From contig CAVSGI010000021.1 of the NCBI GenBank assembly GCA_963727445.1, positions 544,001-608,000 on the forward strand: DNA of 64,000 bases, in the 5' to 3' direction. The position numbers were made by a program, and so were the translations under genes. Of this stretch, positions 2 through 43,710 are shown in pieces. Each line of letters opens with the position of its first letter. The stretch's first letter is position 1. The DNA comes from an uncultured delta proteobacterium (lineage in GTDB: Bacteria > Myxococcota_A > Polyangia > Polyangiales > B10-G4). The notes beneath the pieces were generated by a model. The model was not told the origin of the DNA and ran no database searches. It saw only the letters and a list, made by a program, of their open reading frames with translations.

Positions 2-1801
2 TCGCTCATCATCGGAAAGAACGAGAACGACGCGACGCTGATCATGCTCCTCGACAGCGGGGAGGTCGTGGACTTCCTCTACGAGGAGACGGAGCGCTAC
101 CCGGACCTCGCTGCCTATCTGCTGAGCCGGAAGGAGACGCTCCTCGAGATGCGGGCCGCCGCCGCGAGCGCGGCCGAGCGCACGAAGCGCGAGTGGGATC
201 CCGCGTTCCGGAAGGCGGACGACGCGGCGCTCGCGGAGGAGCTGCGTGCGACGCTCGACGCGGCCGAAGGGCGGCCGCCGGTGGCCGAGGTGGCCTCCCT
301 TCCCGATCCGAACGCCGGACCGACACCGGCCCCCGGCGACCTGGTCGTCCGGGACGAGGACGGAGATATCGTCGCTGCGGTGGAGCTCGGGCTGACGCTC
401 TATCTCGGCGCCGCGCCGACCGAGGAAGAGACGCTCGAGACCTTCCGCGCGTTCCGTCGCGTCTTCCCCGTGCCGGGCCCCATGAAGTGGAGCCTCGCCG
501 ACCGCATGGTCTTCTCGATGAAGGAGAGCGACGATCCGGACGCGGAGCCCTTCGCCGATCAGCTACGCGTCGACGACTCCGGGTTCTATGGCCTTCGCGT
601 CCTCTTCGGTACGGACGACGCGCCCTACATCCTGAACGTCCGAGGCATCCCCCCGGAGGAGATCTACGAGGACGACGAGGGCGACGAGGGCGACGACTCC
701 GAGCCCCGGCTCGAGCGGAGGGCCTCCTTCGTCGAGGTGTTGGTGCCGGTCACCGAAGACCCCGAGAAGCTCCGCGCGCTCGCCCACGCGCTTTCGGAGC
801 TGCTCCCCATCAGGAGCGGTCACGGCGGCTACTCGGCGCGCGCCTCGGACCAAGAGGACGAGTCCTGGGCAGCGATCTTCGGCTGGTGTCGTCGCTTCTT
901 CGGCGTCGACGCGTGCTTCGTGGACGGCTGGCTCGGCGGGGCGCTCCATCGACACCGCGGGGCCGGGTGGCTGACCGTGCTCGGGCCGCCCTTTCTCTCC
1001 GCGCTCGGCACCTTCGCGCTGCCGGACGCCGTGACCCGTCACGATGGCGCCCGCGCGACCGTCTTGACCGCGGGGCCGCCGACCCTGGGCGACGTGGCGC
1101 AAGGGCAGATCCCCACCGCGATCATGGAGGTCGCGCGCCTCCTCGCGCCCATCACTCTCACCGAGTGGCAGAAGCGCGGGCACATCAGCGCGGGCGGCCT
1201 CTGGTTCTCCACCTTCGCGACGGAGCTCCCGGGCGCCTTCGGGCACCACCATGCGACCGAGAGCTTCCTCCGGCGCTTCGTCGATCCGATGGCCTTCGTC
1301 GGCCCGAGCGCTCGGGAGGTCGGTCTCGAGATCATCGAGCGCTTGAAGGCGAGCATGGACGCGGAAAAGCTCGAGGCATGGAGCGCGCAGACGGACCTCG
1401 ACGACCTCGAGTTCTTCCGCGACGTCATGGTCGCGCTCTTCGCCGGCGCTCATCACACGCCCGACGACGCGCTCCGAATCGAAGCGCTCGAGCACGCGAC
1501 GCGCTTCCCCGGCTGGTCACCTGCGGCCGCCTACAACAACCTGCTCAATCACTACTTCGCGGCCGATCGCATCGATGACGCCATGGCGCTGATGCCCATG
1601 GCACTCGAGACCGCGAAGGACAACCCCTACACCTATCACTCGGCGGCCTGCTGTCTCGTGAAGGCCGGCCGCCTCGACGAGGCGATGGACGCCGTGCGCC
1701 ACGCGGCGGAGGCCGAGTACGAGCACCTCGACAAGCTCGAGGTGGACGACGACCTCGCGCCCTTGATGGAGCGCGAGGAGTGGAAGCGGCTCTTCGGCTG
1801 A
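2..1801 (+). CDS. 5'-truncated multidomain putative immunity protein: possible SMI1/KNR4 (SUKH) tail, DUF3396-like central domain, C-terminal TPR
   Basis: Frame is open from base 2. The central region has a DUF3396-like pattern (LGLTLYL...SGHGG...GWLTVLG...GDV). The C-terminus YHSAACCLVKAGRLDEAMDAVRHA is TPR-like. The SUKH call rests only on the visible end (LLDSGEVVDFLYEE..YPDLAAYL). Confidence 0.55.
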   Translation, partial: SLIIGKNENDATLIMLLDSGEVVDFLYEETERYPDLAAYLLSRKETLLEMRAAAASAAERTKREWDPAFRKADDAALAEELRATLDAAEGRPPVAEVASLPDPNAGPTPAPGDLVVRDEDGDIVAAVELGLTLYLGAAPTEEETLETFRAFRRVFPVPGPMKWSLADRMVFSMKESDDPDAEPFADQLRVDDSGFYGLRVLFGTDDAPYILNVRGIPPEEIYEDDEGDEGDDSEPRLERRASFVEVLVPVTEDPEKLRALAHALSELLPIRSGHGGYSARASDQEDESWAAIFGWCRRFFGVDACFVDGWLGGALHRHRGAGWLTVLGPPFLSALGTFALPDAVTRHDGARATVLTAGPPTLGDVAQGQIPTAIMEVARLLAPITLTEWQKRGHISAGGLWFSTFATELPGAFGHHHATESFLRRFVDPMAFVGPSAREVGLEIIERLKASMDAEKLEAWSAQTDLDDLEFFRDVMVALFAGAHHTPDDALRIEALEHATRFPGWSPAAAYNNLLNHYFAADRIDDAMALMPMALETAKDNPYTYHSAACCLVKAGRLDEAMDAVRHAAEAEYEHLDKLEVDDDLAPLMEREEWKRLFG

Positions 1802-1907
1802 GCTCGGCGCGCCGAACGCGTCCAATCAACAGCCGGGCAAGGGCACGGGAGTCTAGTCTATAGACTAGAAGCTATCTCAAAACTCAGCGCTCGCGAACTG
1901 CATGACC

Positions 1908-2149
1908 GCGCCGAAGGGAGGGTCCCACCCCGGGGCTCGGGGACCTTGCAGATGCGAGCGCGAGGCAAGACCAGCAACGTGGTCTCGTCGGCAATCCAGC
2001 TCCGCGTCGCCTGACGGCACCGCTACGCCTTCTTGCCGACTAGAGAGCGCTCGCGCAAGGTCCCCTGTCCGTCCGTGCCAACGCGGGTGCGACACTGCGT
2101 GCGCGTTGGCACGGCCGGACACCCCGGGGTGCGACCCTCCCTCCGGCGC
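1908..2149. other. Highly base-paired multibranch element in the IS, downstream of the transposase (candidate ncRNA or nested MITE)
   Basis: Outer stem 1908-1935/2122-2149 (26 of 28 complementary). Inner stems 1939-1949/2055-2065, 1954-1961/2047-2054, 1968-1973/1980-1985, 1987-1994/2033-2040, 2066-2071/2116-2121 and 2073-2085/2102-2114. Confidence 0.6.
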
Positions 2150-2190
2150 CTGATAGATCAATCTCGGACGAGTTTCTCGAACTGGGTGAT

Positions 2191-2961
2191 TCAGAACTGT
2201 CTGAGCAGGATGACGAGACAGCCGAGCTGCACGAAGCCCAGGAAGTTTTCTGGCCGGCGTTCGTAGCGGGTAACGAGCCGTCGGAAGTTCTGCAGCCACG
2301 TGAACACTCGCTCGACGAGCCATCGCCGACGGTAGCGACGCAACGGTCGACCATCCTGGGTGTGGCGCCGACGCCGCGGATGATGTGGCGCAATCATCTC
2401 GATGTCGCGCTCCACGAGGAGGTTCGTGTCGAGCTTGTCACTGTCGTACGCCTTGTCTCCGATCAAACGTTGCGGCAGCTCGTCCAAGAAGGCCGCGTCT
2501 AACGTTTCGTCGACGAGCGTGACCTCATGACGCTGACCACTCGCAATCGAGAGCGGCGATAGGAAGACCATTGCCGTCTGCGACTGCCATGATCTTGGTG
2601 GCCTTCCCGCGACGAGTTTTTCCAACGCAAGGCCCCCCTTTTTGGCTCCCGCGTGGGTGCCGTCGATGAATCCTTCTGTCAGGTCCAGCTTCCCGCGATC
2701 CCGTAGGTCTTCAGCCAACGCTCGCAGCATTCGCTCCATCACACCTTCGTCGACCCACTGCTGATAGCGTCGGTGGCATGTCTGGTACGGCGGATAACGT
2801 CCTGGCAGATCGCCCCACTGCGCACCGGTGCGTAGAATCCACAGCACGCCGTCGAGCACCTCACGAGCAGACCGTCGTGGCCTTCCTGGGCTGCCCCTAC
2901 GTCTGTCGCGCTCAGGAAGAAGGGGCTCCAGGATTTTCCACTCCTGATCGGTCAGATCCAT
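2191..2961 (-). CDS. IS5-family DDE transposase with -1 frameshift site and an apparent extra base near 2555
   Basis: Motifs [47 protein letters not shown]5G6 slippery run at 2633-2643 on the minus strand. Confidence 0.92.
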
Positions 2962-3057
2962 TCAGACCGTAGATCAGAAAACCGATCCGACGTCGATCCC
3001 CCAACGCTTTCTCCTTAATCCTCGCAGACTTAGATCCCACGAGTTTTGAGATAGCTT

Positions 3058-4449
3058 CTAGCGGCCCTGCATCGGGATCCCGAGCGTGTCGCGGGTGCCG
3101 GGGTGTTCCGCGCTGGTCCAGATCAGGCGCTCGGCACGCTCGACATAGAGATCCTCGCAGCCGCGCGGCCACGCGGTGATCTGGCTGGTGAGCCCGGGGC
3201 GGTTTCGGTAGAGGCGTCCGTAACCCGAAGCCTGGCTCGAGCTGGAGACGTAGTAGACGTCTTCGAAGGTGACCGCCCCCTGCATGCGTGATTGCGCGGC
3301 GAGCACCGCGTCCTCCGCGAAGACGCGCCCGCCCGAGCCCGCGAGCCAGCCCGAGGCGAGGTCGACCGGCCAGCGCACCACCCGTCCGTCGACGTCGTCG
3401 GCATGGTACTCCCCGCTCACGAGCGCCGGCGGGGTGCCGTCGCGGTCGAAGCCCACGAAGGAGAAGCGGACGCGACAGGAGTCGCCCGCGAGGGAGTAGC
3501 GGGCGATCTCGGGGACCGCGTAGCGGTAGCCGTGTGCGTCGCTTCGAGTGCCCGAGAAGCCGATGCGTCCCGTGTCGTCGGTGTTCGTCGGCCGGAAGAT
3601 GCGCGCCATGTCGTAGACGCGGAAGCCGCGGGAGGTGATGGCGACGTAGAGCTTGTCGCCGATCCACGCGATGCCGCCGGCATGCACGGCCGCGCCGTCG
3701 CCGTAGGTCGCGGCTTCGAAGTCGACCGTGGCGCCATCGCCGACCGGCGTGACCAGGAGCAGGTGGCGGTAGCGGACGTTCTCCAGATCCGTGATGTCCG
3801 CCAGGCTCACCCGCACGCCCTTCGTGGGGAGCGCGTCGGTCCGGTGATACCAGCTGACCAGAACCGTGCGGCGACCCGAGACTCGACCGTCCTCCCGCGC
3901 GTCGCTCGAGCCGGTCATCCCCTGCGGATACCAGTAGTCCACGTCCTCGTCGCCGGCGTTCCAGCGGAAGCCCACGAAGTCGTGATTGCGCATTCGGTAG
4001 GCCGAGTCCGCGGAGATGCCGGCGCGCCCAGCGCGGTTGAGATGGCCGACGACGGAGTCGATGGAGACCGCGCCGCCGGCCCGCGTCACGAGAGCATCGG
4101 CGCGCGCCTCGGCCGCCGCGCGATCATGGGGGCCCTCGAGGACGAAGGCGCAGCCGTCGACCGACTCCATCGCCTGCTCCGTCGGGCTGCCCTCGACACC
4201 GCGACAGGCGCTGACGCCGGGACATCGAGGCGGCGCCGCATCTTCTGCGCCGTCGACACCCGCGTCCATCGGCTCGGCGTCCATCGAGGTCGCGTCGGCG
4301 AGGGCGTCGCCGTCGGAGGTCGCGCCATCCCGCGAACCCGCGTCGGCGCCCCCGTCGGCCGTCGACCCGTCGCTCGGCGCCGCGCTTTGTCCGCAGGCGG
4401 CGACGAGCCACGTGACGAGGACGGCCGTGCGTACAGCGGCGAGGACCAT
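3058..4449 (-). CDS. Secreted lipoprotein of unknown function (WYPQG motif, probable beta-propeller)
   Basis: Lipobox VAAC, acidic DGG/DAG linker, Trp/Tyr-rich globular domain (WYPQGMTGSSDA, HAGGIAW). Confidence 0.7.
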   Translation of the reverse strand: MVLAAVRTAVLVTWLVAACGQSAAPSDGSTADGGADAGSRDGATSDGDALADATSMDAEPMDAGVDGAEDAAPPRCPGVSACRGVEGSPTEQAMESVDGCAFVLEGPHDRAAAEARADALVTRAGGAVSIDSVVGHLNRAGRAGISADSAYRMRNHDFVGFRWNAGDEDVDYWYPQGMTGSSDAREDGRVSGRRTVLVSWYHRTDALPTKGVRVSLADITDLENVRYRHLLLVTPVGDGATVDFEAATYGDGAAVHAGGIAWIGDKLYVAITSRGFRVYDMARIFRPTNTDDTGRIGFSGTRSDAHGYRYAVPEIARYSLAGDSCRVRFSFVGFDRDGTPPALVSGEYHADDVDGRVVRWPVDLASGWLAGSGGRVFAEDAVLAAQSRMQGAVTFEDVYYVSSSSQASGYGRLYRNRPGLTSQITAWPRGCEDLYVERAERLIWTSAEHPGTRDTLGIPMQGR

Positions 4450-25257: not shown

Positions 25258-25320
25258 CGTCCCTCCGAGAGGGCCTAGGACTCGCGCCTCGGACGAGCAC
25301 TGTCAAGGCGATGAGGCGGG

Positions 25321-25970
25321 GTGGTGGGGACGCAGTCCCGGCTCGCGCCACCTCTGCTGCGCACGCCCTGCACGTGGGCTCCGCCCACGTTCCGGCCGCG
25401 CTTCGCTCCGGTGCCCCGAGCCTTGTGGTGGTGGGGACACAGTCCCGGCTCGCGGCACCTCTGCTGCGCACGCCCTGCACGTGGGCTCCGCCCACGTTCC
25501 GGCCGCGCTTCGCTCCGGTGCCGCGAGCCTTGTGGTGGTGGGGACACAGTCCCGGCTCGCGGCACCTCTGCTGCGCACGCCCTGCACGTGGGCTCCGCCC
25601 ACGTTCCGGCCGCGCTTCGCTCCGGTGCCGCGAGCCTTGTGGTGGCGGGGACACAGTCCCGGCTCGCGGCACCTCTGCTGCGCACGCCCTGCACGTGGGC
25701 TCCGCCCACGTTCCGGCCGCGCTTCGCTCCGGTGCCGCGAGCCTTGTGGTGGTGGGGACGCAGTCCCGGCTCGCGGCACCTCTGCTGCGCACGCCCTGCA
25801 CGTGGGCTCCGCCCACGTTCCGGCCGCGCTTCGCTCCGGTGCCCCGAGCCTCGTGGTGGTGGGGACGCAGTCCCGGCTCGCGCCACCTCTGCTGCGCACG
25901 CCCTGCACGTGGGCTCCGCCCACGTTCCGGCCGCGCTTCGCTCCGGTGCCCCGAGCCTCGTGGTGGTGGG
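25321..25970. repeat. Tandem array of six near-identical 107-bp hairpin-rich units (REP/BIME-like)
   Basis: The GGAC anchor A recurs at 25330, 25437, 25544, 25651, 25758 and 25865. Hairpins GGGAC-RCA-GTCCC and ACGTGGGC-TCC-GCCCACGT, plus a 13-bp closing stem. Confidence 0.95.
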
Positions 25971-38357: not shown

Positions 38358-38641
38358 GGGCGGGACTCTAAATGAACGACCACGATTGTGGGACGGAGGA
38401 TCGCGAAGGATGCGGCGTCGCTCGGAGGGAGGGCCGACGAAGGACCGCCGATCGGCCGCTCGAGGAGACCCGACGCGGCGAGCGGCGTCGCAGACGAGCG
38501 AGGAACGTTCCAGAATCGTGGTCCTTCATTTGGCTTGGTGGGCTCCCAGGTCCAGAGGGCAGGTGCCGCTGCTTTTTTGACCCGAAGCAAAAGGGAAAAG
38601 TAGGGTGTCTATCCCACATCTGAGCACATCGGGGTACACGC

Positions 38642-42795: not shown

Positions 42796-43125
42796 ATGGC
42801 TGGAAAGAACGTGCACGAAGTCAACGACCTCAACTTCGACCAGGAGGTCCTTCAGTCGGACGTTCCGGTGCTCGTCGACTTCACCGCGACATGGTGCGGA
42901 CCCTGCCGTCAGGTCTCCCCGCTGGTCGATCAAGTCGCCGACGAGTACGAGGGCAAGCTCAAGGTCACCAAGCTCGACATCGACGACGCCCCGGCCACCG
43001 CGCAGAAGTACGGCATCCGAGGCGTGCCCACCCTCTACGTCTTCAAGGGCGGCGAGGTCGTCGCCCAGCAGGTCGGCGCCGTCCCGAAGAACGTGATCCA
43101 GGCACTCGTAGAGCGCGCGCTCTAA
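42796..43125 (+). CDS. trxA: Thioredoxin
   Basis: VLVDFTATWCGPC, YGIRGVPTL; RBS GGGAGA. Confidence 0.97.
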   Translation: MAGKNVHEVNDLNFDQEVLQSDVPVLVDFTATWCGPCRQVSPLVDQVADEYEGKLKVTKLDIDDAPATAQKYGIRGVPTLYVFKGGEVVAQQVGAVPKNVIQALVERAL

Positions 43126-43698
43126 AGCGAGCGCTCCCAAAGGAGCGCGAGCCACGCAGAAGGCTCGTGGGAGCGAAGCGGAAGGCCTCGCAGCGAGGCC
43201 GAAGGCCTCGTCGCGAGGCCTGAAGCGCAGCGAGCACGAGCCGGTAGTGAGCCCAAGCGAGCGCTCCCAAAGGAGCGCGAGCCACGCAGAAGGCTCGTGG
43301 GAGCGAAGCGGAAGGCCTCGCAGCGAGGCGGAAGGCCTCGTGGCGAGGCCTGAAGCGCAGCGAGCACGAGCCGGTAGTGAGCCCAAGCGAGCGCTCCCAA
43401 AGGAGCGCGAGCCACGCAGAAGGCTCGTGGGAGCGAAGCGGAAGGCCTCGCAGCGAGGCGGAAGGCCTCGTGGCGAGGCCTGAAGCGCAGCGAGCACGAG
43501 CCGGTAGTGAGCCAAGCGAGCGCTCCCAAAGGAGCGCGAGCCACGCAGAAGGCTCGTGGGAGCGAAGCGGAAGGCCTCGCAGCGAGGCGGAAGGCCTCGT
43601 GGCGAGGCCTGAAGCGCAGCGAGCACGAGCCGGTAGTGAGCCCAAGCGAGCGCTCCCAAAGGAGCGCGAGCCACGCAGAAGGCTCGTGGGAGCGAAGC
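43126..43698. repeat. Tandem array of about 4.4 near-identical 130-bp multi-hairpin units
   Basis: GCGCTCCCAA recurs at 43131, 43261, 43391, 43520 and 43650, between convergent trxA and the pseudokinase. Confidence 0.95.
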
Positions 43699-43710
43699 GC
43701 CCCCCGCCCG

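Follow-up and report, generated by a model that had tools for sequence, protein, structure and literature searches.

The segment at 1908-2149 of the window (the whole 64,000-nt stretch of DNA analyzed here), which lies in an IS5-family element downstream of its transposase, is a composite of two nested repeats, an element A and a REP-like unit B carried in one of its loops. This split into an outer and an inner part was shown by searches of the source genome (9.47 Mb, 68.8% G+C) and 60 relatives. Element A is an uncatalogued family of polar three-way-junction repeats of ~190 nt, restricted to one order. We favor, with a probability of about 0.58, the view that A is a passenger, i.e., a non-autonomous element of the REP/REPIN kind that is carried along in the ends of IS and is moved in trans as a folded single strand, and its reading as a guide RNA encoded by the IS5 element is largely refuted.

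Host IS5 element and its structured segment

The features of the element and the segment are as follows.

1868..3058, minus strand: IS5-family element with about 310 extra nt at its 3' end; a TA lies on either side, at 1866-1867 and 3059-3060 (presumed duplication)
1866..1885, strand not given: right terminal inverted repeat, 20 nt including TA
3041..3060, strand not given: left terminal inverted repeat, 20 nt
2191..2961, minus strand: IS5 transposase frame, 256 aa (NF033580, 210 bits against a cut-off of 110; PF13340, PF01609)
2176..2193, minus strand: possible decayed remnant of an original right end, across the stop codon (resemblance weak)
1888..2152, minus strand: element A, a Y-shaped three-way junction with a short outer tail (1888-1907), model score 144.7 bits
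1908..2149, minus strand: closing stem P1 (1908-1935 with 2122-2149), differing in sequence between copies with pairing maintained
1939..2065, minus strand: arm P2 (1939-1949 with 2055-2065; 4-nt bulge 1950-1953; 1954-1961 with 2047-2054), core beside the bulge near-invariant
2066..2121, minus strand: arm P3, a hairpin with a conserved core and a conserved irregular pair
1985..2041, minus strand: element B, a 57-nt REP-like palindrome in the variable P2 loop (stem 1987-1994 with 2033-2040)
2040..2043, strand not given: CTAG at the B/A junction

The host element was assigned to the IS5 family by its IS5-type DDE transposase, terminal inverted repeats and CTAG/TA target, and from this target we take it to be IS427-like. 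Its terminal arms (1865-1885 and 3041-3061) are 100% complementary. Between the transposase stop codon (2191-2193, minus strand) and the inner edge of the terminal repeat (1885) lie 305 non-coding bases, in agreement with the roughly 300 of the preliminary description, and the almost fully paired structure reported there was confirmed, with z about -10 relative to shuffled sequences. The closing stem of 28 bp (1908-1935 with 2122-2149) is present and 93% complementary, as is the second hairpin (2066-2085 with 2102-2121), whose 13-bp core is perfectly paired. The region 1880-2195 folds at -187.2 kcal/mol on the plus strand (z -10.1, equaled by 0 of 100 shuffles) and at -197.8 kcal/mol on the minus strand (z -8.9), and 1888-2155 of the minus strand reached z -11.9 when folded as DNA. 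With the Rfam covariance models, no family was found at threshold for the segment, for ten solo or IS-borne loci or for the window, where sub-threshold hairpin matches only were returned. An 83-codon frame (1902-2153) was rejected as a gene; it has no Pfam match and is missing from solo copies that do not carry B.

The segment is found, whole or in part, in five copies or remnants within the source genome (C21, C1, C10, C11 at 92%, and C14), which indicates that the extended IS5 element has transposed, and another genome (G023) carries the same IS end with 46 bases of the segment. In the C21 and C1 copies, ~28 transposase residues are off-frame relative to relatives, from a slippery site near 2633-2643 to about 2555 (six relatives were searched, and the motif is listed in five); thus, these two transposases are probably inactive now. 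A search of plasmids matched the transposase part only.

Relatives of the IS5 element were drawn from 35 loci of a genome-wide scan and from 17 of 401 genomes of the order. Outside the source genome, 53 locus rows reach the transposase C-terminus, several rows representing one element, and in 47 of them the terminal repeat lies at most 43 nt from the stop codon: the end is 11 nt past the stop in 44, at the stop in two and at 43 nt in one, the other six having no match to the repeat pattern used. Close transposase relatives are compact and end a few bases after the stop. As the stop codon overlaps the terminal repeat in this IS5 clade, the 3' extension is a derived state. Neither A nor B was matched in these 53 rows; the segment is therefore absent from related IS copies, an outcome that the preliminary description had named, like wide occurrence outside the IS, as refuting it.

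Several other features were observed around the element and elsewhere in the window. A perfect 18-nt palindrome with two CTAG motifs (1853-1870) occupies the right flank of the IS and is possibly the footprint of an earlier insertion or excision. On one side, a gene with the type VI immunity domain TsiV (PF11876; 2-1801, plus strand) ends 65 nt ahead of the IS, and on the other, the stop of a lipoprotein-like frame of 463 aa that has no Pfam match (3058-4449, minus strand) is the TAG of the IS target. Directly outside the right end of one compact IS5 relative, a long near-perfect hairpin was seen (L036:2272-2391), which is not element A. The window also holds two tandem arrays of palindromic units, with periods of ~107 nt (25320-25970) and ~130 nt (43125-43699), and a dispersed ~165-nt repeat (38366-38536) that is matched at six or more further places in the genome.

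Element B and the CTAG motif

Element B is missing from solo copies of A. It has 16 profile matches in the source genome, three of them IS-borne, and it forms tandem arrays in another genome (G001). Copies of B outside any IS also terminate in CTAG, which explains the CTAG at 2040-2043: its position had been given correctly, but it marks the B/A junction and is not a targeting motif. Element B joins A after CT on the minus strand, and a longer duplication is absent. Since TnpA-REP cleaves at CT according to the cited part of PMC8266576, we infer that the CT upstream of B may be linked to cleavage of the TnpA-REP type.

Fold, covariation and distribution of element A

An alignment of 17 copies of A gave a three-way junction in which 29 of 59 pairs show double changes. 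There were 98 double-change cells and six single-change cells in this alignment, exceeding all 500 shuffles and every slid control, although these counts do not translate into a probability because the copies are related. In a second set of 65 distinct copies, which were aligned to the A model and are hence biased towards it, double changes occurred at 45 of 58 pairs. Among 75 copies, there is hardly any variation at the junction, in the bases beside the P2 bulge or in the P3 core, and the closing stem P1 varies freely in sequence with its pairing retained. Covariation, on which the preliminary description had made a structured RNA depend, is thus strong in A, and this argues that A is not a decaying random passenger.

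Of 151 genomes of the order, 29 were found with the model R1 to contain A, with 1 to at least 15 copies per genome (lower bounds, as 15 candidates per genome were scored), mostly alone or as inverted pairs located where genes end; A is therefore widespread in IS-free form. In one genus, 34 of 55 genomes carry it. In a sample of the phylum, seven of 151 genomes had A, all within its own order, and as the model was built from close copies, remote copies could escape it. A pattern scan of metagenomes yielded four loci with A. A 16-base pattern matched viral contigs 72 times, but none of these matches was a genuine copy (best profile E 2.5e-4, short pieces). In the titles and abstract openings searched, the A family is not described; the supplementary repeat tables of PMC3733652 and PMC5737381 could bear on its novelty.

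Copies of A occur solo (in the source genome at C14:279876 and C17:97565), in tandem, as tail-to-tail inverted pairs and in mosaics with other palindromes. At one Crp-MlaC site, among the 30 loci listed, A is present in some species, while the spacers of others are short and A-free; no target duplication is evident at this site, where the empty sites have diverged. The possibility that P1 is made from the insertion site was ruled out, as one P1 is common to different sites within one genome.

Additional arrangements were observed alongside A. In genus g9 (L272-L343), A is clustered downstream of terminators with three or more additional families of palindromic repeats, some of which join truncated A at one recurring position beside the P2 bulge. 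In genome G104, the repeats of two inverted A pairs (L237:1975-2766 and L213:833-1700) continue inward for another ~100 bp, so that the hairpins are 800-900 nt long. At L242:631-1525, a small membrane-protein gene, identified by eye, lies between two direct A copies in a cassette-like arrangement.

Strand preference and gene context

The stems of A contain mismatches that are distributed unequally between the strands. On the plus strand, A.C outnumbers G.T by 83 to 14 in 75 copies and by 109 to 15 in the second set of 65 copies, and the excess is seen in 23 of 26 genome groups. As plus-strand A.C mismatches are G.U or G.T wobbles on the minus strand, the minus strand is the favored folding strand. 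The folding energies of 17 copies did not reveal the bias, which emerged only with the 75 and 65 copies. Such a bias would result from selection as well as from deamination if an intermediate is single-stranded.

Where a gene ends beside A, it mostly does so at the outer edge. Among the 125 copies without an assigned IS, a gene 3' end lies within 120 nt of the outer edge only in 50, of the inner edge only in one, of both edges in five and of neither in 69, with genes called by a codon score. In the source genome (G000), all five A-ends and all three left ends of the IS5 face an incoming gene end, which makes IS orientation relative to host genes uninformative there.

Element A inside unrelated IS elements

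Six IS lineages, two each of IS5, IS701 and ISAs1, were found to carry element A close to the inner side of an end. The second IS5 lineage (G018), whose transposase is about 30-35% identical to that of the window lineage, has A between the stop codon and the right end in all seven full-length copies. Of the IS701 lineages, one (L183, with the same end in G001) carries A at the right end and the other (G067) at the left end, and the ISAs1 lineages of G055 (three of three copies) and G081 carry it at the left end. In all six lineages, among them that of the window, the folding strand has its 3' end towards the IS terminus, irrespective of which end is occupied and of the direction of the transposase. 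In the families sampled, such carriers are a minority, as A is present at three of 23 ISAs1 loci and absent from 20, and present at one of ten IS701-relative loci and absent from nine, some of these loci being truncated. A different stem-closed element of ~190 nt lies inside both terminal repeats of an IS701 in G019 (L424:159-348 and 2091-2250), its two copies being 73% alike and inverted.

Search for a mobilizing enzyme

Pfam searches of 86, 124 and 122 frames neighboring A, the last set being 122 of 185 candidate frames, revealed no reverse transcriptase, including the RVT family, and no integrase, and a retron non-coding RNA was rejected on this result. The transposases in the scanned neighborhoods were those of the IS carriers and one Y1 gene only. 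A Y1/HUH gene of about 245 aa is multi-copy in G002 (L383, L413-L421; 12 matches), with a shared short motif ~100 nt past its stop, and within one of its copies lies a small cassette of two genes with DUF2442. In three of ten Y1 loci of G002, A lies 0.1-0.9 kb downstream, beyond the shared end motif, with its folding strand on the transposase sense strand. In contrast, A was near none of the 29 Y1 loci of other genomes and was missing from 14 of 15 loci in the first set. Moreover, the Y1 family is frequent in families that yielded no A, and its distribution, in a tally that includes the unpublished genome G122, from which no conclusion is drawn, does not follow that of A. The Y1 protein scored 32.7 bits against the RAYT model (cut-off 80), and its role as a general mobilizer of A is unsupported outside G002.

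Relation to known systems

Comparison with REP, BIME and REPIN elements and their TnpA-REP (RAYT) proteins, as presented in the cited parts of PMC8266576, PMC3116915 and PMC6006769, revealed many likenesses. Element A is an intergenic multi-copy palindrome with inverted doublets and mosaics, one recognized strand, a conserved bulge or mismatch in the stem and polymorphism between related genomes, and B has a four-base tag at its stem foot and joins after CT. However, REPs are there described as hairpins of 20-65 nt in hundreds of copies, whereas A is ~190 nt long, three-way branched and present in 1 to at least 15 copies per genome; B (57 nt) fits the REP size. The GTAG/GTGG (or CGTC) foot tag is absent from A, which has a loose AGG...CCG only, and B has CTAG in its place. 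In addition, a linked RAYT was not found for A, and A is carried inside the ends of DDE IS, while the IS-REP links known from these sources are IS inserting into REPs. In view of its size and tag, we do not class A as a REP/REPIN member, though it is probably REP-like in its working.

Omega RNA of IS200/IS605 is an example of an IS-encoded RNA. The bridge RNA of IS110 (PMC11208160) and the small RNAs of ISPpu9 (PMC8450116), as far as the cited parts describe them, resemble A as structured non-coding stretches in an IS end. IS-encoded RNAs are, however, bound to one transposase family, whereas A is optional in three and mostly IS-free, and it shows neither the conservation across a cognate transposase clade nor the loop complementarity to target or donor flanks expected of a guide RNA.

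The stem-loop MITEs ERIC, Correia/NEMIS and RUP are 100-200 nt long, fold strongly and lie at gene 3' ends. Element A shares this size range, the strong fold and the location, but it lacks terminal inverted repeats that would match a transposase. The MITE reading was rejected because the closing stem P1 is freely variable between copies and matches the ends of no carrier, and because no target duplication is evident at the diverged Crp sites. Similarly, the long closing stem around two hairpins recalls retron msr-msd, but A has neither an adjacent reverse transcriptase at the scanned copies nor an invariant G following the 5' strand of its closing stem; a title cited in PMC6868368 reports dispersed copies of msDNA-like repeats in the myxobacterium Nannocystis. 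Integron attC sites and the DUF1874 motif (PMC5737381, in part) are likewise strand-biased folded palindromes at gene 3' ends, and a few A copies flank small genes, but the neighbors of A are mostly housekeeping genes; an attC reading was rejected, as no integrase is nearby and the AAC/GTT core is variable.

The passenger reading and its alternatives

The preliminary description had proposed either an IS5-borne RNA or a nested MITE/REP-like passenger. Since related IS lack the segment and the segment is widespread outside IS, the passenger is supported, in its REP-like form and not as a MITE. Under this reading, an enzyme whose gene lies elsewhere would recognize A in its folded single-stranded form, as HUH transposases do with REPs and REPINs, and A would insert beside gene ends and IS termini, persisting in an IS only where frame and terminal repeat were both unharmed. 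It would have entered this IS5 lineage between the stop codon and the terminal repeat, the only harmless place, and would since have been copied with the IS; the same entry may have occurred in the other IS5, IS701 and ISAs1 lineages, which would carry A between hosts. Some observations count against the passenger reading. No mobilizing gene is consistently linked to A, and A has no GTAG tag, is 4-10 times the size of a REP and is branched. Sequence does not distinguish folding as single-stranded DNA from folding as RNA, as is also held in the cited part of PMC5737381. Neutral hitchhiking does not explain why the polarity is fixed in six IS lineages or why, in G055, the A core is better conserved than the IS non-coding DNA beside it.

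These last observations bear on a less probable explanation, in which A, as RNA or as folded DNA, would be a structured module with a function in insulating boundaries or ending transcription there, kept by hosts at gene ends and recruited by unrelated IS families for end protection. Such a module would fit the identical orientation towards the terminus in six of six IS lineages, which is suggestive at about 1 in 32 by chance, and the placement of gene 3' ends at the outer edge in 55 and at the inner edge in six of the 125 solo copies. It would also fit the unrelated stem-closed element inside both ends of another IS701 and the core of A in the G055 ISAs1 copies, which is 0.93-0.95 identical against 0.72-0.86 in adjoining windows for one pair, a contrast weakened by the homogenized ends of one copy pair. 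However, the folding strand is antisense to the gene ending beside A, the opposite of a plain 3'-UTR RNA structure, and co-directional contexts show A in the two orientations equally (13 and 12). In addition, no terminator-like or sigma-70-like site was found in 1780-3100, and most of the sampled relatives of the carrier IS lack A. We regard it as rather unlikely that A is a strand-specific module with a conserved junction core, recruited convergently by unrelated DDE IS inside their terminal repeats, for example for insulation, and spreading between hosts thereby.

Less likely still is an origin of A as a subterminal module of DDE IS, the solo copies and inverted pairs being leftovers after deletion of the IS body. 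One-ended remnants in which CTAG, a terminal repeat and A follow one another (G000 C11, C14, L185, L222, L252, L254) agree with such an origin, as do the IS-borne R1 matches of G018 (seven of seven) and G055 (three of three), but the IS that carry A come from three families unrelated to one another, in each of which they are a minority, and no transposase was found among the 122 frames neighboring the genus g9 loci. Stops of genes ending next to solo A are TAG in 19 of 55 cases, against 61 of 170, and CTAG is likewise not enriched; the derivation of solo A from an IS inserted at TAG stops was therefore rejected.

A targeting or regulatory RNA encoded by the IS5 element, comparable to omega or bridge RNA, is very improbable: the segment lies downstream of the transposase on its sense strand with a strong, covarying fold, and the G018 lineage also has A at its 3' end, but closer transposase relatives lack the segment, A occurs in IS701, ISAs1 and many IS-free sites, the CTAG target is common to A-carrying and A-free IS, and loop-flank matches were no better than shuffles bar one marginal case (6.03 against 5.78 +/- 0.12, 5/200), loop-loop complementarity within A being null as well.

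The analysis thus removes a claimed first IS5 guide RNA and brings to light a family of structured repeats that is uncatalogued, covaries strongly and clearly prefers one strand. If convergent recruitment of A were true, A would represent a new kind of portable IS end accessory. A branched substrate of single-stranded DNA this large would be rare, a point made for another motif in the cited part of PMC5737381. REPINs have been described as vertically inherited in the cited part of 10.1101/2021.07.10.451892. The recurrent placement of A in one polarity within the ends of IS5, IS701 and ISAs1 elements may provide a route by which non-autonomous palindromes pass between genomes.
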